From an uncultured Candidatus Bathyarchaeia archaeon (GTDB lineage Archaea > Thermoproteota > Bathyarchaeia > Bathyarchaeales > Bathyarchaeaceae): a stretch of DNA of 59,730 nucleotides. The stretch lies in assembly GCA_964347555.1 (NCBI GenBank), contig CAYFZT010000001.1, positions 1 through 59,730 on the forward strand, given 5' to 3'. Shown piece by piece: positions 11,849 to 19,836 of the stretch; position 1 is the first letter of the stretch; each line of letters begins with the position of its first letter. The notes below the pieces were generated by a model. That model did not search any database, had not been told where the DNA came from, and saw nothing but the letters and a program-made list of their open reading frames with translations. The position numbers were made by a program, and so were the translations under genes.

Positions 11849-13213
11849 ATGAACATGTCAGAAGTTACAGAGCTTATCAAAAAAGAGAATGTGAGGCAAG
11901 TAGCTTTACAATTCACCGACATGTCTGGCATCTTACATACTCTGTGGATACCTTCTGAGCTCTTCTCGAAGGTAGCTGAAGGGGGCATACATGTGGATGG
12001 TTCGTCAATCGGCATGGTAGACGTAAGCAGAAGCGACCTGAAGTTAATGCCAGACGTAGACACATTCGCAGTGTTGCCACCAGAAATTTTTGCCCAGAAG
12101 GTTGCAAGAGTAGCTTGTGACATCTACCAGCCAGAATCGAACAGGCCTTTTGAGCTTGACCCAAGATTTGTCCTAAAGAAAGTTATGGACGACGTTAAGA
12201 AAAGCCTGGGGACCTCTGTAAAATATTACGCATCTAGTGAATTGGAATATTTCCTGTTTAAAAGAGGCGAAAATGGCGACATCAAACTACTCGACGAAGG
12301 GGGATATTTGGCTACTCCTCCAGCAGATCTCGGTGTTGATTTGAGACTTGAAATCGTAAAAAATCTTAGAAACATGGGCGTTTTGATCGAAAAACACCAC
12401 CATGAAGTACCTCCTGGCAAATACGAGTTGGAGCTGGGGTTGGAGTTGGGATTGGAGCTGGGAATTAGAGCTGGGGACTTGAATGCATTAATGATAGTTG
12501 ATACTCTTTACTTGGTTAAGTTCCTCACGAAACTAATTGCTGCTAAAAGTGGACTTATCGCTTCCTTTATGCCGAAGCCTTTTCACGGTCAATTTGGGGC
12601 TGGGCTACACACTCACGTTACTCTCATAGATGAGGAAAAGAATCAAAACCTTTTTTATGACCCAGCCGAGAGTTATGGTCTCAGCAAAACATGCTTAAAC
12701 TTCATAGCTGGCATTTTAGCTCACGCAAGAACTTTGGTAGCCCTGACAAACCCGTCCGTCAACTCCTACAAGAGGCTTGTTCCAGGCTGGGAGGCGCCGG
12801 TTTACATTTCATGGGGAAGATATAATCGGTCAGCCCTTATCCGGGTTCCCCCTGGAAAAGAGATGAGAACTAGACTGGAGTACAGACCCACAGACGGATC
12901 ATGTAATTTCTACATAGCATTTGCTGCTATTCTAGCCGCTGGACTGGACGGCATAAGAAGAAAAATTGAGCCTTCAGAGCCTGTGGAAGAGGATATATAC
13001 AAAATGAGCGGAGAAGAAAGAGTTAAGCGAGGCATAGAGGTTCTCCCAGAAAATCTGGGCGACGCTTTAAAGGAGCTCTCCAAAGACAAAATTATACGGG
13101 ATGCCTTGGGGCACGCGTTCTGCGAAAAGTTTCTAAAACTTAAGACGAAAGAGTGGAGAGATTTTAACGTCACAGTACACGAATGGGAAAGAAAGAAGTA
13201 TCTTGATGTTTAG
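11849..13213 (+). CDS. Glutamine synthetase family protein (type I-like) with an in-frame tandem-repeat insertion in the catalytic barrel
   Basis: VALQFTDMSGILH N-domain, HHEVPPGKYE, SFMPKPF, GAGLHTHV, NSYKRLVPGWEAP and RLEYRPTDGSCNFY are GS signatures. An extra GLELGLELGI follows the E-x-E strand. Confidence 0.8.
   Translation: MNMSEVTELIKKENVRQVALQFTDMSGILHTLWIPSELFSKVAEGGIHVDGSSIGMVDVSRSDLKLMPDVDTFAVLPPEIFAQKVARVACDIYQPESNRPFELDPRFVLKKVMDDVKKSLGTSVKYYASSELEYFLFKRGENGDIKLLDEGGYLATPPADLGVDLRLEIVKNLRNMGVLIEKHHHEVPPGKYELELGLELGLELGIRAGDLNALMIVDTLYLVKFLTKLIAAKSGLIASFMPKPFHGQFGAGLHTHVTLIDEEKNQNLFYDPAESYGLSKTCLNFIAGILAHARTLVALTNPSVNSYKRLVPGWEAPVYISWGRYNRSALIRVPPGKEMRTRLEYRPTDGSCNFYIAFAAILAAGLDGIRRKIEPSEPVEEDIYKMSGEERVKRGIEVLPENLGDALKELSKDKIIRDALGHAFCEKFLKLKTKEWRDFNVTVHEWERKKYLDV
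12425..12473 (+). repeat. Degenerate 12-nt tandem repeat (about 4 copies of GnnTTGGAGCTG) inside the GS-like CDS
   Basis: gagttggagctg / gggttggagttg / ggattggagctg / ggaattagagctg, encoding ELEL-GLEL-GLEL-GIRA. Confidence 0.85.
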
Positions 13214-14539: not shown

Positions 14540-14893
14540 TTATTTTCGCCACATGCGAAGAGCCGAAGCTACAGCCAATATCCCGATGATCGCTAAGAAG
14601 ACCGCTAACGTATAGACCAAGTTAGCCACTTGAATGTTGAGAAACCAGACTCCTCCAACGGCGACGAGCAGTATTCCTCCTACAAAGGTGCTGAAGGGTC
14701 CACGCTCATATTTTTCTGGACTTTTCAGGCGAATTCCTGCGAGAACTATAATCCAAATTCCGGAGAAAGCAATGATGAGGGAAAGGACTTCGTCTGCTCT
14801 CCCAATAAGGCCTGCAGCGTAAGCCAGTATGCAGACAGCTACGATAATAACGAAGATTCCGAGAGAGAGCAAACCGGTGGGTTTTCTCGCCAT
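14540..14893 (-). CDS. Small integral membrane protein (about 4 TM)
   Basis: Four hydrophobic segments. It is the last gene of the minus-strand 17219-14540 cluster. Confidence 0.6.
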   Translation of the reverse strand: MARKPTGLLSLGIFVIIVAVCILAYAAGLIGRADEVLSLIIAFSGIWIIVLAGIRLKSPEKYERGPFSTFVGGILLVAVGGVWFLNIQVANLVYTLAVFLAIIGILAVASALRMWRK

Positions 14894-14906
14894 GACATTT
14901 CTCCAG

Positions 14907-15872
14907 CTATTTCATCTTTTTACCACAGTCAGGGCAGAACTTCGCTGTTTTGAGCACTGGGTGTCCGCATTTTGGGCATTTTGTTGTTCCAGTTGGTGCC
15001 GCTTCAATTTTGTTTCCGCATTCAAGGCAAAACTTTGATGTAGCGGGTATTCTGGCGTTGCAGTTTGGGCATATAATGAGGGCGGCTGCGGGTGTAGGTG
15101 CTGGTCCAGTTGGCGTCATTATTTGTGGTATGAGCACCATTCCTGTGCCGAGGCCTGCACCAGGAGATTTTCCAAGCTCTTTGGCAGCTTCTTTCACTGT
15201 TTCCATTCTTAACACTTCCTCTGCAGCTCTTGTTTGTCTTAGCCAGAACAAGCGGTCTCTGAATTCAGGTGTGGTGTCGATTCCTTCGAAACGGAGATCG
15301 GTGAGGTCGAGTCCTATTCGCTTAAAAGCGTCTAAAATGTCGTTTTTCACAGCCAATGAGGTTTCATCCAACTTCGTGAACACTGTGACAAGGTCATATC
15401 GGGAAAGCTCATCAATCATTCTTTCGTTAACATAGCCTCGGAGGTAATTGTTCACGTCACTTGATGTGTAGGCGTTTTGTCCTCCAACAACCTCCATAAC
15501 AAATAGTTGAGGATCTTCAACTTTAAACCAGAAACCGCCATGAACTTGCAGTGGAGCCAATTCGGTTGTTTGAGCTTTTGCCCCGTACTTGCCTGCGAAA
15601 ACACGGGTTGAAATGAAGATTACTGACGCTTTAAACGGCTTTTCTCCGTAGCCTGCAATGCGTGACAGGATGCCCGTCAGCAAGGGCAGATTTAATGTCG
15701 TAAGCGTGTGTCTTCCTGGACCTAAAACGTCGTAGGCTTTTCCGTCTCTAAAAAAGACGGCTGCTTCATATTCGCGAACGACGAGTTGGGATCCCCAAGT
15801 AATCTCATCTTCTGGGTGTCTCCAAACGATGTCTTCCGATCTCGGGTTTTTCCACTCTAAAATTTGCGGCAT
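14907..15872 (-). CDS. SPFH/Band-7-like protein (YdjI/COG4260 type) with two C-terminal zinc ribbons
   Basis: The ILEWKNPRSEDIVWRHPEDEITWGSQLVVREYEAAVFFRDGK N-terminus is typical of the YdjI-like family as I recall it. The C-terminus carries CPNCNARIPATSKFCLECG and CPKCGHPVLKTAKFCPDCG. Confidence 0.7.
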   Translation of the reverse strand: MPQILEWKNPRSEDIVWRHPEDEITWGSQLVVREYEAAVFFRDGKAYDVLGPGRHTLTTLNLPLLTGILSRIAGYGEKPFKASVIFISTRVFAGKYGAKAQTTELAPLQVHGGFWFKVEDPQLFVMEVVGGQNAYTSSDVNNYLRGYVNERMIDELSRYDLVTVFTKLDETSLAVKNDILDAFKRIGLDLTDLRFEGIDTTPEFRDRLFWLRQTRAAEEVLRMETVKEAAKELGKSPGAGLGTGMVLIPQIMTPTGPAPTPAAALIICPNCNARIPATSKFCLECGNKIEAAPTGTTKCPKCGHPVLKTAKFCPDCGKKMK

Positions 15873-15873
15873 C

Positions 15874-16431
15874 TTATTTCACTCCCAAAATAACTTCTTG
15901 TCTTTCGTCAAATTTTTCTTCCAATGATTCTAAGGAGTTACTGAGTGTTTGAATATGTTCCGTTGTTTTCTCAATCTTTCCTTTCATGACTTCTCCCTTT
16001 AAGTCATTGGTTTCTTTGACAATTCTTTCCACATAACCAAACAGCTCGTTGTCAAAAGCGGTCATCTTGTCGAGTTTCTCTTCCTCAACCTTCAGAATGT
16101 TGAAGAAGCCCGCATAACCATAAGAAGCGTGGTTAATCTTTTCAGAGACTCTGTCAAATCTCATTAGAAAGCGATCCATATCTTTTAAAACTTCATGGAG
16201 GCGGCGGTCTGAAAGCTTTTGAAAAACTTCTTTTAGATCTTTTTTTGCTTCTGCAAGTTTTCGATATATGTGATTGCGAAGGAGTTTGTCGCTTTCTCTG
16301 CGGAGTTCCTTTTCCTTGTATCCTCTGAATCCTGGGATTTCCGCTAGGATTCTTTCGGAAAGCCTCATCTCTCCTTTTGCCTTTTTATAGAACCCTTTTT
16401 CCTCGCTCATAACCAACTGTCTCCTGTTCAT
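15874..16431 (-). CDS. All-helical coiled-coil protein of unknown function
   Basis: Heptad-rich and highly charged. 2-nt spacing to the downstream SPFH gene. The start may be the internal Met of MSEEKG at 16410. Confidence 0.6.
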   Translation of the reverse strand: MNRRQLVMSEEKGFYKKAKGEMRLSERILAEIPGFRGYKEKELRRESDKLLRNHIYRKLAEAKKDLKEVFQKLSDRRLHEVLKDMDRFLMRFDRVSEKINHASYGYAGFFNILKVEEEKLDKMTAFDNELFGYVERIVKETNDLKGEVMKGKIEKTTEHIQTLSNSLESLEEKFDERQEVILGVK

Positions 16432-16466
16432 ACCATAAGGTTAAACTGAGGCTTTTAAGATTTTCA

Positions 16467-17219
16467 TTAGAGAAGTCCAGTCTTTGTTGCAGGTATGTCT
16501 CCTTTTATGACCATGCCTGTAGCCCCGTCTAAAAGAATCTGGTAGCGTTCACCTTTATATTCGTAAACAATGAGCCAAATGGGGGCGTGAAGATACACAA
16601 TGTCGCCTATGTCGAAGTCGGTTTTCATCTCTATTATCTTGTCCACATCTTGCTTCACTAAGAACTGATGATGTCCTTCAATCTGCTGCCGCGCCAATTC
16701 AACTGCTTCCTGCTTCTCCATCTCGCTATTGAGCACCTTAGCAAAGCCTTCGATTTTTCGGAAATCGTAGGGAATCTTTCCTTCTAATGGAACGTCATAC
16801 GCTCTTGTTGGAAACTCTGTGGCTTTCCTTGCTAAAACCAACCAGCTATACTTTTTCTCAATTTTTCCTTCCTTCACCACAGGCGGAACCAAGCGTTCAA
16901 AAATCCCTTTGTAAATTGTAGTAGCAGATGCGGATACTATCCAAAAGGGCGAATATGTTAACGTTTTTTCTAAGATCTTAGATGAACGGGCAAGATCTCC
17001 AGGCTTTAGAAAGCCGCTTCTCATCCAGTTGTGTGCCAACTTTTCAATCTGTTCTAGATCGTATTCGTTGAGAAGCATCGAATGTTCTAACGTAAACGCT
17101 TTGCCAGTTTCGATGACTTGTGTAAAACCGCAGTAACGACAAGTGGCAACGATATCGCCTGGTTTAAACTCTAAGGGCCCGCCACAGTTGGAACAGCGAA
17201 TCTCTTCAACAATTGACAT
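16467..17219 (-). CDS. Zinc-ribbon protein with an uncharacterised C-terminal domain
   Basis: N-terminal CSNCGGPLEFKPGDIVATCRYCG ribbon. C-terminal YLHAPIWLIVYEYKGERYQILLDGATGMVIKGDIP strand motif. Confidence 0.6.
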   Translation of the reverse strand: MSIVEEIRCSNCGGPLEFKPGDIVATCRYCGFTQVIETGKAFTLEHSMLLNEYDLEQIEKLAHNWMRSGFLKPGDLARSSKILEKTLTYSPFWIVSASATTIYKGIFERLVPPVVKEGKIEKKYSWLVLARKATEFPTRAYDVPLEGKIPYDFRKIEGFAKVLNSEMEKQEAVELARQQIEGHHQFLVKQDVDKIIEMKTDFDIGDIVYLHAPIWLIVYEYKGERYQILLDGATGMVIKGDIPATKTGLL

Positions 17220-17427
17220 AGTGCATCCTCTTTGAAACTTACTTGACGCAGGTTCAACATAAGCTTTCTTTGGCAGGTTTATTGTTTGGAATTAGAAAGG
17301 GGGTTAAAGCCATCATGAGAAGGCGTTTTGTTAAAAAAGAAAACGTTATAAGACGAAGTGATTTCTAGATACGCAATTCAGCTATGACATGGGATAAAAC
17401 AGGTTTCCACACGACACTTATGAACTG

Positions 17428-18105
17428 GTGAATAGTTTGATTCCCATTCGTGACGCAAATCGTTCTTTAACCACACCTCATATTACCAGAATACTCATCA
17501 TAGTTAATGTGATAGTGTTCTTCATCTCTTGGCTTCCAGGCACGCTAGATCAAGCTATTTGGAAATATGGAATGATTCCCGCTTTCATAATTAAAGGAGA
17601 AAAATCATGGACACTTTTGACTTCCATGTTTTTGCACGGCGACCTTCTCCATTTAGCTTTCAACATGTTGTACCTTTACATATTCGGCGACAATGTGGAA
17701 GATGTCTTCGGGCATGGGCGCTATTTCCTCGCTTACATTCTTTCAGGGACCATTGCAAGTGCCATATACATATGGACACTGGTAAGTTCGCATGACGTTA
17801 ACGCATTGTGGATTCCAACTATTGGAGCCTCAGGCGCCATTTCAGGGATTCTCGGAGCATACCTTGTTTTGCATCCAAAAGCCAGAGTGCTCACTCTAGT
17901 AATTCTTGGTTGGATAACCATTCTGCCAGTTCCTGCGGTTCTTTTCCTCGGCTTCTGGTTCGTTCTTCAAGTACTCTACGGTGTGTTAACTATTGGATTC
18001 GGTGCAGTTACTTCAATTGCTTATTGGGCTCACATAGGTGGCTTTCTGGCAGGGCTGGTCTTCGGTTTGGTTTGGAGACGTAGAAGGGTGAGACATGAAC
18101 TCTAG
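17428..18105 (+). CDS. Rhomboid-family intramembrane serine protease
   Basis: SMFLHGDLLHLAFNM, catalytic GASGAISGILGAY, and the HIGGFLAGL histidine helix. Confidence 0.85.
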   Translation: MNSLIPIRDANRSLTTPHITRILIIVNVIVFFISWLPGTLDQAIWKYGMIPAFIIKGEKSWTLLTSMFLHGDLLHLAFNMLYLYIFGDNVEDVFGHGRYFLAYILSGTIASAIYIWTLVSSHDVNALWIPTIGASGAISGILGAYLVLHPKARVLTLVILGWITILPVPAVLFLGFWFVLQVLYGVLTIGFGAVTSIAYWAHIGGFLAGLVFGLVWRRRRVRHEL

Positions 18106-18706
18106 CGACCTAATCAATACCGTTTTGCTGATTGTGTACAATGCTTTCATAATTCTTTACGTCTCTCGTAAAGTCAACGAGAAGTTCGGGAGATACATGG
18201 CTAGGAAGACTATTCATGTGTTTTCTGCTGGAGTCAGCTTGATTCTCAGCCCGTTCTTATTCAGCAGCCTACTTTTCCCTCTCATGTTCGCTGGACTTAT
18301 GATATTATTCACGGTCGCAGGCCATATTAAGAATCTTTTCGGGTGGTTTCAAGAGAATAAAAACTACGCCGACGTCTATTTCACAGTGACTTGCACGTTG
18401 TTGCTGACTCTATTCTGGAATTACAATATTTGGATAGGCGTTCTCTCCTGTCTCTTCATGGCTTGGGGAGACGGCGTTACAGGCCTTGTAAGGTATCTTG
18501 TCTATAAGAGACGAACAAAGGGAATCTGGGGAAACATAGCAATGTTCCTTCTCTGCGCTGGTTTAGGATACTTTCTGCGCGCGCGGTATAGCGGACTCAT
18601 CAGAGGAGCCTTTTCTAGTATCATAGAAAAATTTGAAAAGTTAGATGACAACATATCCGTGCCCTTTGGCTCTGCAGTAGTTATGACAGTCCTCGGGTTC
18701 TTGTAA
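18095..18706 (+). CDS. Polytopic membrane protein, possibly of the polyprenol/phytol kinase or cytidylyltransferase family
   Basis: Six or so TM segments and a WGDGVTGLVR motif resembling the dolichol/phytol kinase family. Overlaps the rhomboid gene by 11 nt. The functional call is weak. Confidence 0.4.
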   Translation: MNSSDLINTVLLIVYNAFIILYVSRKVNEKFGRYMARKTIHVFSAGVSLILSPFLFSSLLFPLMFAGLMILFTVAGHIKNLFGWFQENKNYADVYFTVTCTLLLTLFWNYNIWIGVLSCLFMAWGDGVTGLVRYLVYKRRTKGIWGNIAMFLLCAGLGYFLRARYSGLIRGAFSSIIEKFEKLDDNISVPFGSAVVMTVLGFL

Positions 18707-18798
18707 ACGTGTTTGTATTTCGAGACGCAAAGCTTAATTCATAAATTAAAGGCAATTAGGATTGAACTTAGCTTTCCAAGAAGCTGAGAGGTGAAGAA

Positions 18799-19836
18799 AT
18801 GGCAAGACTAGCGCAACTAAAGCTTTCTATGGGAACTTCAGTACTCTTAGTTTCAATAATCTTTGCCGTTTTTCTCGCCGTGATAATGGCGATTTTACAG
18901 CTCAATCTCATATGGGCTTTAGTCATAACTATCATTTTCATATTAATACAGTATCTGATCGGTCCAGCTATAGTGAGGGCGTCCACAAATCTCAGGGATC
19001 TACGTTCAGGAGAACATCCCTGGCTGGAATCCACAGTCAAGGATTTAGCCCAAAAGAGTGGGATTCCAATGCCTCGGCTGGCAATTGTACCAGATGACAC
19101 ACCTAACGCCTTTGTTTTCGGAAGAACAACCAGTGACGCCACTCTGGCTGTTCATGAAGGTTTGTTAACCCAGCTTAACCAAGATGAGATTCGAGGCGTC
19201 CTTGGGCACGAGCTTGGGCATATTCGGCACAGGGACTTCTTGATTATGACTGCCCTTTCTTCTCTTCCTCTCTTGGCTTACTTGATATTTCGGGGTACAT
19301 ATGGAGCTGCTTGGGTCAGTGGAAGGGCGTCTAGGAAAAAGGAGGGTGGAGGCGTTGCGGCTGCACTTTTCCTAGTTGCCATTGTCTCCTATGTTATCTA
19401 TATTGTTTCCTTACTGTGTGTCATGAGGCTAAGCCGCCTGCGAGAGCATTACGCTGACGCTTACTCAGCTTATGTGACAGAGTCTCCTCATCAACTGTCA
19501 AGCGCTCTAACCAAAATCACCTACGGATTGTCATTGTCGCCGAAGCCTCCTCACGGCGCTAGAATGTTTTACATAGGTGACCCCGCCCTTGCAAAACTGG
19601 AGGTTCAAGGTCTGTTGCAGCGAAAATCGGAGTATGACATCGATAAGGACGGCGTTCTAGACGAGAGAGAGCTTGAACTTGCCATGGAGAAAGAAGCTAC
19701 ATCTAGGTGGGTATCTGTCAACCGTCTGTTTCAAACTCATCCGCCAACTTTTCAACGAATCCTTTTGTTGCGCGAGATTGAAAAGGAGATGGAGAGCGGC
19801 AGATACACAACTGACCGCGTATATGCTCACGTTTGA
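18799..19836 (+). CDS. htpX: M48-family zinc metalloprotease HtpX
   Basis: HELGHIRHRD (HExxH), N-terminal TM pair, and a downstream EHYAD glutamate motif. Confidence 0.8.
   Translation: MARLAQLKLSMGTSVLLVSIIFAVFLAVIMAILQLNLIWALVITIIFILIQYLIGPAIVRASTNLRDLRSGEHPWLESTVKDLAQKSGIPMPRLAIVPDDTPNAFVFGRTTSDATLAVHEGLLTQLNQDEIRGVLGHELGHIRHRDFLIMTALSSLPLLAYLIFRGTYGAAWVSGRASRKKEGGGVAAALFLVAIVSYVIYIVSLLCVMRLSRLREHYADAYSAYVTESPHQLSSALTKITYGLSLSPKPPHGARMFYIGDPALAKLEVQGLLQRKSEYDIDKDGVLDERELELAMEKEATSRWVSVNRLFQTHPPTFQRILLLREIEKEMESGRYTTDRVYAHV

Follow-up and report, generated by a model that had tools for sequence, protein, structure and literature searches.

SPFH proteins (stomatin, prohibitin, flotillin, HflK/C) occur in every domain of life, but what they do is poorly understood. 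To our knowledge, membrane arrival and control of the YdjI/SamI branch, whose members carry no membrane anchor, are known for one species only. In Bacillus subtilis, the SPFH domain of YdjI/SamI is followed by a low-complexity linker and then by a zinc finger at the C-terminus; the protein is brought to the membrane by YdjG and YdjH (PMC8581546; bioRxiv 10.64898/2026.02.06.704340); YdjI in turn recruits PspA to the membrane (PMC8581546). Here we describe a four-gene operon in a 59,730-nt stretch of DNA from an uncultured Candidatus Bathyarchaeia archaeon (contig CAYFZT010000001.1, positions 1 to 59,730; hereafter, the window). It encodes a zinc-ribbon protein (P1), a small helical protein (P2), an SPFH protein of the YdjI/SamI type (P3) and a small membrane protein (P4). 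With a probability of about 0.55, this operon is a membrane-associated SPFH scaffold module of the SamG/SamI kind, organized around a previously undescribed two-gene core, P2-P3. The principal observation is that an SPFH protein without a transmembrane segment and a dedicated helical partner are encoded by translationally coupled genes in bacteria and archaea alike. The novelty lies in P2, a conserved core subunit of an SPFH partner system, the SPFH and ribbon proteins being homologous to known members.

The open reading frames (ORFs) were all found where the initial annotation had placed them, as four packed genes with ORF-to-ORF gaps of 35 nt (P1-P2), 1 nt (P2-P3) and 13 nt (P3-P4) when P2 is taken as 185 aa. 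The features of the operon are the following.

16467..17219, minus strand: P1, ORF of 250 aa
17130-17195, minus strand: zinc ribbon of P1 (residues 9-30, CxxC...CxxC)
15874..16410, minus strand: P2, 178 aa, helical; 185 aa if started at an alternative ATG further 5′, at 16431
14907..15872, minus strand: P3, 321 aa, Band_7_1 (YdjI/SamI-type) SPFH protein without a transmembrane segment
15183-15827, minus strand: SPFH domain of P3 (residues 16-230)
14913-15077, minus strand: two C-terminal zinc ribbons of P3 (residues 266-320)
14540..14893, minus strand: P4, 117 aa, four transmembrane segments

The length first given for P2, 185 aa, did not hold, although its all-helical character was retained in the structural model. 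Because nearly all P2 homologues are 178 aa long and a GGAG ribosome-binding site lies 10 nt 5′ of the second ATG, translation probably starts at 16410 and yields a product of 178 aa. With this start the P1-P2 gap is 56 nt; it is typically 49-95 nt in relatives. The ATG of P3 follows 1 nt past the P2 stop codon, with a GGAG within the 3′ end of P2, and the start of P4 is also preceded by GGAG.

When the operon was compared with pspA-ydjGHI (pspA-samGHI) of B. subtilis, three elements were shared: a Band_7_1 SPFH protein that has no transmembrane segment and in which a low-complexity linker leads to one or more zinc ribbons at the C-terminus; a zinc-ribbon protein encoded alongside, homologous to P1 by way of an Enterococcus cluster and other bacterial pairs; and a membrane protein within the operon. 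In contrast, the archaeal operon contains neither PspA nor a homologue of the TPM-domain protein SamH (no TPM match in the four proteins), its ribbon protein has one ribbon instead of two and no transmembrane segment, and its membrane component is an unrelated mini-protein with four transmembrane segments. It also includes the coupled P2, of which a scan of five bacterial clusters linked to YdjG (the B. subtilis locus not among them) gave no trace, and P3 falls in another Band_7_1 clade in a neighbor-joining tree. The stomatin/NfeD and HflK/C-FtsH systems likewise couple an SPFH gene translationally to a dedicated partner that is expected to act at the membrane. Their SPFH proteins, however, have an N-terminal transmembrane segment and long coiled-coil walls (PMC2636767), neither of which is present in P3, and P2 is an all-helical soluble protein rather than an NfeD-type membrane protein with an OB-fold or a protease. 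The methanogen ‘Meth_adaptin’ ESCRT loci (Makarova et al., PMC11188069) resemble the operon in having an archaeal zinc-ribbon SPFH protein in a membrane-remodelling context; they differ in carrying Vps4, ESCRT-III and adaptin-like genes, none of which occurs at the P1-P4 cluster, and P1, P2 and P4 are not described there. We found no paper on the P2 family or on its coupling to Band_7_1. Surveys of the phage shock protein (PSP) and ESCRT systems discuss YdjI-type and other zinc-ribbon SPFH proteins and not the P2 partner, and the PSP surveys contain no data on Bathyarchaeia.

The gene order was strongly conserved. One genome per species was scanned, which gave 230 P2 relatives; the best 80 loci, all of them from metagenome-assembled genomes (MAGs) of Bathyarchaeia or Thermoproteota, were analyzed. 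The SPFH gene came directly after P2 in all 77 Bathyarchaeia loci with enough DNA, at a median distance of 1 nt (range, 0-10 nt; 72 species). P4 was directly 3′ of the SPFH gene in at least 66 of the 73 Bathyarchaeia loci when searched with a hidden Markov model (HMM), and in more when searched with tblastn, at a distance of 11-22 nt; this search covered the fetched loci. P1 was directly 5′ of P2 in 52 of the 73 loci and at most 6 kb away in 65, with kilobase insertions in approximately 10 genomes. Thus, in Bathyarchaeia, P2-P3-P4 represents a fixed unit and P1 a frequent accessory. The arrangement, kept with near-invariant spacing in 80 species-level genomes, is far beyond chance. Conservation of the order in other archaea, which the initial annotation had proposed as a check, was upheld by these counts from the best 80 of 230 loci.

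The pair formed by P2 and the SPFH gene extended much further than the operon. By set, adjacency was observed in 77/77, 6/6 and 63/65 loci; the last set comprises the metagenome loci in which the sequence reached far enough downstream, and its two exceptions had a small insertion between P2 and the Band_7_1 gene. A Band_7_1 gene directly followed the P2 homologue in a Vulcanimicrobiota MAG, in two Anaerolineae MAGs, in a 7.6-Mb bacterial contig and in Thermofilaceae, and the same pair was present in three further contigs (loci L172-L175). Many of these loci are clearly bacterial, with genes for TonB-dependent receptors, RND efflux proteins, FHIPEP or ribosomal protein L9 around the pair. The core of the system is thus the P2-SPFH pair, found well beyond archaea, a point that the initial annotation had missed. 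No PspA, TPM or TelA gene was found in the 166 P2-bearing loci scanned (L001-L166), and no PspA gene was found in the 59.7-kb window.

The genes added to this pair differed among lineages. Bathyarchaeia add P1 and P4. Thermofilaceae add a small multi-transmembrane protein of 99-107 aa, which occupies the position of P4 and is not homologous to it, followed by two P1 paralogues, each with C-terminal transmembrane segments. In a Chloroflexi-like group (29 bacterial loci), the gene directly 5′ of P2 encodes a protein of approximately 165 aa with two N-terminal transmembrane segments, a winged helix-turn-helix (HTH)-like segment and a C-terminal zinc ribbon (for example, L082:5296-5796; also L083, L097-L101, L112, L117, L124, L125, L128 and others). 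A DUF2207 membrane protein of approximately 620-660 aa precedes this gene in 12 of the 29 loci. The 165-aa protein could be the membrane anchor or a regulator of the P2-SPFH pair in its lineage. The C-terminal module of the SPFH protein also varied by lineage and was a double zinc ribbon, GYF_2 or, in Comamonas, HTH_17.

In one archaeal-looking locus (L174:3764-7968), the P2 and SPFH genes overlap by their start and stop codons, with an HSP20 gene upstream, an OsmC gene downstream and a rhomboid gene 5 kb upstream; this stress-gene context was a single instance.

P3 matched Band_7_1 (PF13421) over residues 16-205 with 104.1 bits (E = 1e-29), well above the gathering cutoff of 24; its other Pfam matches were Band_7 (4e-20), DZR (9e-12) and Zn_Ribbon_1 (4e-14), the ribbons being located at residues 266-320. 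The linker from the SPFH domain to the ribbons (approximately residues 235-265) contains many Pro, Gly, Thr and Ala residues. No transmembrane segment was detected in P3 (no 19-residue window reached the transmembrane threshold), and the maximum Kyte-Doolittle score among 77 Bathyarchaeial P3 orthologues was 1.51. P3 therefore shows the features of Band_7_1/YdjI proteins, that is, the PF13421 score, the lack of an anchor, and a low-complexity linker with C-terminal zinc fingers, in agreement with its first description as a YdjI-like SPFH protein with two zinc ribbons. In the neighbor-joining tree, P2-linked SPFH proteins, archaeal and bacterial, separated from SPFH proteins whose only linked partner was a YdjG-like gene. 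No transmembrane segment was present in any P2-linked protein of the set used for the tree. Zinc ribbons were present on only 37% of bacterial P2-linked SPFH proteins.

An exhaustive profile search placed 1070 cluster representatives (50% identity) in the P2 family at E ≤ 1e-3 and 454 at E ≤ 1e-10. Members come from Bathyarchaeia, Thermofilaceae, Chloroflexi-like and Vulcanimicrobiota genomes and are mostly 165-185 aa long. P2 carries the signature motifs PGFRGYKEKELRRESDKLLR and HASYGYAGFF; across the family, the motif close to the N-terminus is (I/V)PG(F/Y)xGYKxKExRRxADKxLR and the central one is HASYGY(A/S)GFFDAxK. The sole library match of P2 was to the NCBIfam model NF047596 (LIMLP_15305), over the full length, at 48.2 bits against an equivalog cutoff of 210 bits (E = 1e-12). 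When P2 and ten diverse relatives were compared with this model, E-values ranged from 5e-7 to 1e-16, mostly over near-full length. By sequence, P2 is homologous to the LIMLP_15305 family, as a member of the same broad family and not as an equivalog. The model takes its name from a Leptospira locus tag and has no functional assignment; no function was found for LIMLP_15305 in the literature either, and in the one paper found it figures only as the neighbor of a small RNA (PMC7567364). No Pfam family was common to 38 diverse P2 relatives. A weak match of P2 to DUF7201 (7e-4) was not reproduced in relatives. Searches with P2 against PDB sequences and profiles gave no match, and neither did tblastn against plasmids.

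Some family members are fusions. Four have a C-terminal DUF4178 (P0304, P0336, P0367 and P0370), a beta-rich domain known from PspA/polyamine operons; one (P0287) has an N-terminal zinc ribbon on a Pro/Thr/Gln linker, and one (P0266) has an N-terminal transmembrane helix. DUF4178 has been described as a domain of PspA-associated operons (PMC11237479).

The confident AlphaFold2 model of P2 (predicted local distance difference test [pLDDT], 80.5; predicted template modelling [TM] score, 0.74) has four long helices (residues 29-68, 72-97, 110-142 and 149-175) in an up-down arrangement, with the SYGYAGFF loop poorly defined. The residues that are invariant across the family (P26, G27, G30, Y31, R38, D41, R45, G98, Y99, D120 and R170) are located where helix 1 begins, where helices 2 and 4 end and within the first third of helix 3. 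Because the bundle runs up-down-up-down, these positions would all lie at one pole. When the model was compared with PDB and BFVD by Foldseek, only generic helical bundles were recovered, all at E ≥ 0.027; the best structural match, the IncA four-helix bundle (TM score, 0.47; E = 0.04), was uninformative.

Several known identities were examined for P2. When its diverse alignment (A3) was compared with PspA and Vipp1 by hhalign, the probability was 0.15%, the PspA sequence used having been verified against 4WHE. No PspA_IM30 or Snf7 Pfam match was found in P2 or in 48 diverse relatives. An ESCRT-III fold was not supported by the Foldseek comparison with CdvB2 filaments (TM score, 0.15; E = 0.33); the comparison with a viral PspA gave a TM score of 0.31 (E = 0.39), and no PspA or Vipp1 structure was among the best 50 Foldseek matches in PDB. 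The early impression that the helical protein has no similarity to PspA was thus borne out by hhalign, Pfam and Foldseek. Of the TelA-like and LemA-like folds that had been suggested for examination, the first was rejected and the second found no support: comparison with Paracoccus TelA (PF05816) gave an hhalign probability of 1.5% with no Pfam match, no Pfam match to LemA (PF04011) was obtained, no LemA was among the best 50 Foldseek matches in PDB, and P2 has no transmembrane segment.

In P1, the four ribbon cysteines (C9, C12, C27 and C30) are invariant, and the protein has no transmembrane or hydrophobic segment. Beyond the ribbon, nothing was recognized in Pfam, NCBIfam or PDB sequence and profile searches. 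Relatives of P1 were found on plasmids by tblastn in Paracoccus, Vibrio and Pseudorhodobacter (96-98% coverage, E = 1e-8 to 6e-11) and in Tsukamurella (94% coverage, E = 1e-5), and in each annotated case the plasmid relative was directly 3′ of a Band_7_1 SPFH gene. A zinc-ribbon gene was next to a Band_7_1 gene in Paracoccus, Vibrio, Tsukamurella, Enterococcus and Comamonas. In Enterococcus gallinarum, an SPFH gene (Band_7_1 and DZR) is followed by genes for a ribbon protein (Zn_Ribbon_TF, 4e-7) and a TPM-domain protein, in that order, which is the YdjI/YdjG/YdjH set of Bacillus. The HMM of P1 matched, over the whole length of the HMM, the bacterial zinc-ribbon proteins at E = 3e-19 to 4e-28, and hhalign of P1 against this family gave a probability of 99.1% (E = 9e-19, 239 columns), in which residues 3-245 of P1 paired with residues 83-348 of the Enterococcus protein. 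In these alignments the P1 ribbon coincided with ribbons of the bacterial proteins. Two ribbons, an alpha+beta domain and a C-terminal transmembrane segment are present in the bacterial members, an organization that fits the published architecture of YdjG (PMC11237479). The domain that they share with P1 ends in P-x-W ... G-x-T/S-G-x-V-x-G-x-x-P.

Of the features of YdjG/SamG, P1 therefore has the ribbon, the alpha+beta domain and the adjacency to an SPFH gene, and lacks the second ribbon and the C-terminal transmembrane segment. Because it has a single ribbon and ends right after the G..P motif, where the transmembrane segment would begin, P1 is, as judged from its sequence, a soluble, shortened member of the YdjG/SamG-type family of SPFH-linked zinc-ribbon proteins. 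Its link to YdjG runs through the Enterococcus cluster and the published architecture rather than through the B. subtilis YdjG sequence; the published N-terminus of B. subtilis YdjG (MIISYKCPNC, from a primer) fits the ribbon family. An NTF2/YpeB-like fold has been proposed for YdjG. The initial annotation had called the ribbon protein merely comparable to its Bacillus counterpart, and the relationship proved stronger than that. It had also assigned to P1 an N-terminal ribbon and a beta-rich domain: the ribbon stood (residues 9-30), and the remainder was alpha+beta in a low-confidence model, not purely beta. Comparisons for an internal duplication of P1 (N-terminal half against C-terminal half) and for similarity of P1 to DUF4178 were both negative.

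Upstream of the SPFH gene and its YdjG-like partner, two of these bacterial loci carried further genes. In Paracoccus ferrooxidans pFER4 (L167:1263-5981), TelA (PF05816, 1e-106) and DUF2927 genes are directly 5′ of an SPFH gene (Band_7_1 and GYF_2) and the YdjG-like partner. In the Vibrio sp. plasmid p1ST2 (L168:1-2946), the pair has upstream of it, in divergent orientation, genes for a TIR-domain protein and for a hypothetical protein of 762 aa.

P4 has the four hydrophobic segments originally ascribed to it and is predicted to be the sole integral-membrane product of the operon. The loop between its second and third transmembrane segments (P.KYERGaFS) is conserved, as is an AvGGaWF motif, and no match to a Pfam or NCBIfam family was found.

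The mechanism that we propose for the scaffold module begins with P2 and P3, which would be synthesized at a fixed ratio and assemble into a complex. An abundance of Tyr, Phe, Gly and Arg at the pole would suit a surface that docks the SPFH oligomer, one that binds the membrane interface, or both, and P2 is accordingly proposed to target or gate SPFH assembly: its four-helix bundle would dock the SPFH oligomer, the membrane interface or both through this aromatic, Gly-rich and basic pole, and docking would set the place and time of SPFH ring assembly. P4 would provide the integral anchor through its conserved loop, and P1 may serve as a recruitment or sensing adaptor through ribbon contacts. 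By analogy with SamGHI, the complex would stabilize or report stressed membrane regions without PspA; a role as a membrane-stress scaffold is suggested by this analogy.

Several observations weigh against this proposal. The conserved SYGYAGFF loop has a pLDDT below 50, the placement of the invariant residues at one pole was deduced from the order of the helices rather than from coordinates, and the four-helix bundle predicted for P2 is a generic fold. The AlphaFold2 model of P1, built with 42 close homologues, had a pLDDT of 40, so that the fold of its main domain was not modelled, and P1 does not have the transmembrane segment that makes SamG a membrane anchor. P1 was absent within 6 kb in 8 of 73 Bathyarchaeia loci, in which the upstream genes were unrelated and included no substitute ribbon protein. 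The analogy with Bacillus may not carry over, since P4 is unrelated to the TPM protein SamH, the 166 loci held no TPM, PspA or TelA gene and the window held no PspA gene.

The neighborhood of the operon was much less conserved than the operon itself. On the other side of P1, the window contains a rhomboid gene followed by two further genes.

18095-18706, plus strand: 203-aa protein with multiple transmembrane segments; overlaps the rhomboid stop codon
18799..19836, plus strand: HtpX-like M48 protease (Pfam Peptidase_M48, 5e-35)

In the stretch 17220-19836, the rhomboid and 203-aa genes separate P1 from HtpX; among the 80 genomes, none had either of them next to the cluster. A divergent HtpX gene upstream of P1 was present in 9 of the 80 loci and is not part of the conserved core; in the window protein, NCBIfam HtpX models matched below their cutoffs. 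The HtpX-P1 intergenic distance was 91-235 nt in eight loci (L005, L015-L018, L046, L072 and L080), and HtpX stayed with P1 even where P1 was detached from P2 (L017, L018, L046 and L080), at a distance of 0.85-3.2 kb from it. The HtpX-P1 pairing is a lineage-specific hint and no conserved feature. The membrane quality-control neighborhood proposed by the initial annotation was not upheld by these counts, and its label ‘polyprenol-kinase-like’ for the 203-aa protein is unsupported because that protein had no Pfam or NCBIfam match.

Other roles for the pair were considered alongside the scaffold. P2 might be a non-homologous substitute for PspA, a polymerising remodelling or sealing effector that the SPFH protein recruits to damaged membrane. 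P2 does fill the place of the helical protein in the SamGHI/PspA parts list, PspA was absent from the window and from the 166 loci, the DUF4178 fusions tie the family to PspA-type operon contexts (PMC11237479) and YdjI is needed for PspA membrane foci (PMC8581546). Such a substitute is unlikely, however, given the hhalign probability of 0.15%, the lack of PspA_IM30 or Snf7 in P2 and 48 relatives, and a model that is a compact bundle (predicted TM score, 0.74) without the extended ESCRT-III hairpin (CdvB2 TM score, 0.15); in addition, conservation concentrates in loops at one pole and not along the helices, which suggests a docking site over a polymer lattice. A primary role in stress signalling, in which the state of the membrane would alter the SPFH/P2 assembly and ribbon or HTH partners would relay this to gene expression, appears somewhat more doubtful still. 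None of the four Bathyarchaeial proteins has an HTH or other DNA-binding domain (Pfam and NCBIfam), many P2-SPFH pairs have no regulator-like neighbor and the ribbons occur on only the 37% of bacterial P2-linked SPFH proteins given above. On the other side stand the 165-aa protein directly 5′ of P2 in 29 bacterial loci, the C-terminal HTH_17 of the Comamonas SPFH protein, the zinc ribbons on P1, P3 and some P2 homologues, the SamGH-dependent global transcriptional changes that follow loss of SamI in B. subtilis (bioRxiv 10.64898/2026.02.06.704340) and the role as a sensor complex proposed for SamG-SamH.

It is improbable that the SPFH/P2 pair forms a cage regulating the membrane protease HtpX, in the manner of HflK/C-FtsH or stomatin-NfeD. 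SPFH-protease partnerships are well established (PMC2636767), and HtpX is divergent to P1 in the lineage of the window and in 9 of 80 genomes, at 91-235 nt in eight of them and even where P1 is apart from P2. Nevertheless, HtpX was missing from approximately 70 of the 80 Bathyarchaeia loci, and none of the bacterial contexts looked up had it among the called genes (the metagenome loci were not searched), the rhomboid gene is no conserved neighbor, and P3 has neither a transmembrane segment nor the long coiled-coil wall of HflK/C-type cages. Least probable by far is that the genes are unrelated chance neighbors or an anti-phage defence island: synteny and spacing are kept across 80 species and two domains of life, none of the four proteins matched a PADLOC model, and the flanking genes are housekeeping genes that vary between loci, a single pointer to defence being the TIR-domain gene near the Vibrio plasmid SPFH/YdjG-like pair.

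SamG-SamI pairing thus reaches into archaea, and there is strict coupling between a large sister clade of Band_7_1 SPFH proteins and a conserved helical protein that has no Pfam family and no literature. P2 bears a sharply defined conserved site, predicted to lie at one pole; the P2-SPFH pair would offer a two-protein experimental handle on the assembly of an SPFH scaffold without transmembrane segments, and the P2 family would add a named partner family to genome annotation. A broader proposition, for which we would give somewhat less than even odds, is that the P2 family is the obligate partner of the whole anchor-less Band_7_1 clade and supplies its membrane targeting or assembly control. 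If so, P2 would give these proteins what the transmembrane segment and coiled coil give classical SPFH proteins and what SamG and SamH give the Bacillus protein. P2-SPFH would then be an ancient, PspA-independent scaffold system, to which Bathyarchaeia and Thermofilaceae added SamG-like and small multi-transmembrane proteins.

Two genes on the P4 side of the operon were also characterized. The gene convergent with P4 (13241-14512, plus strand) encodes imidazolonepropionase HutI (TIGR01224, 401.6 bits against a cutoff of 298) and is unrelated to the operon, because it adjoins the cluster again only in L001. Midway along the protein encoded by the glutamine-synthetase-like ORF beyond it (11849-13213, plus strand), there is a short tandem peptide, ELELGLELGLELG, which may be either a real insertion or an error of the assembly.

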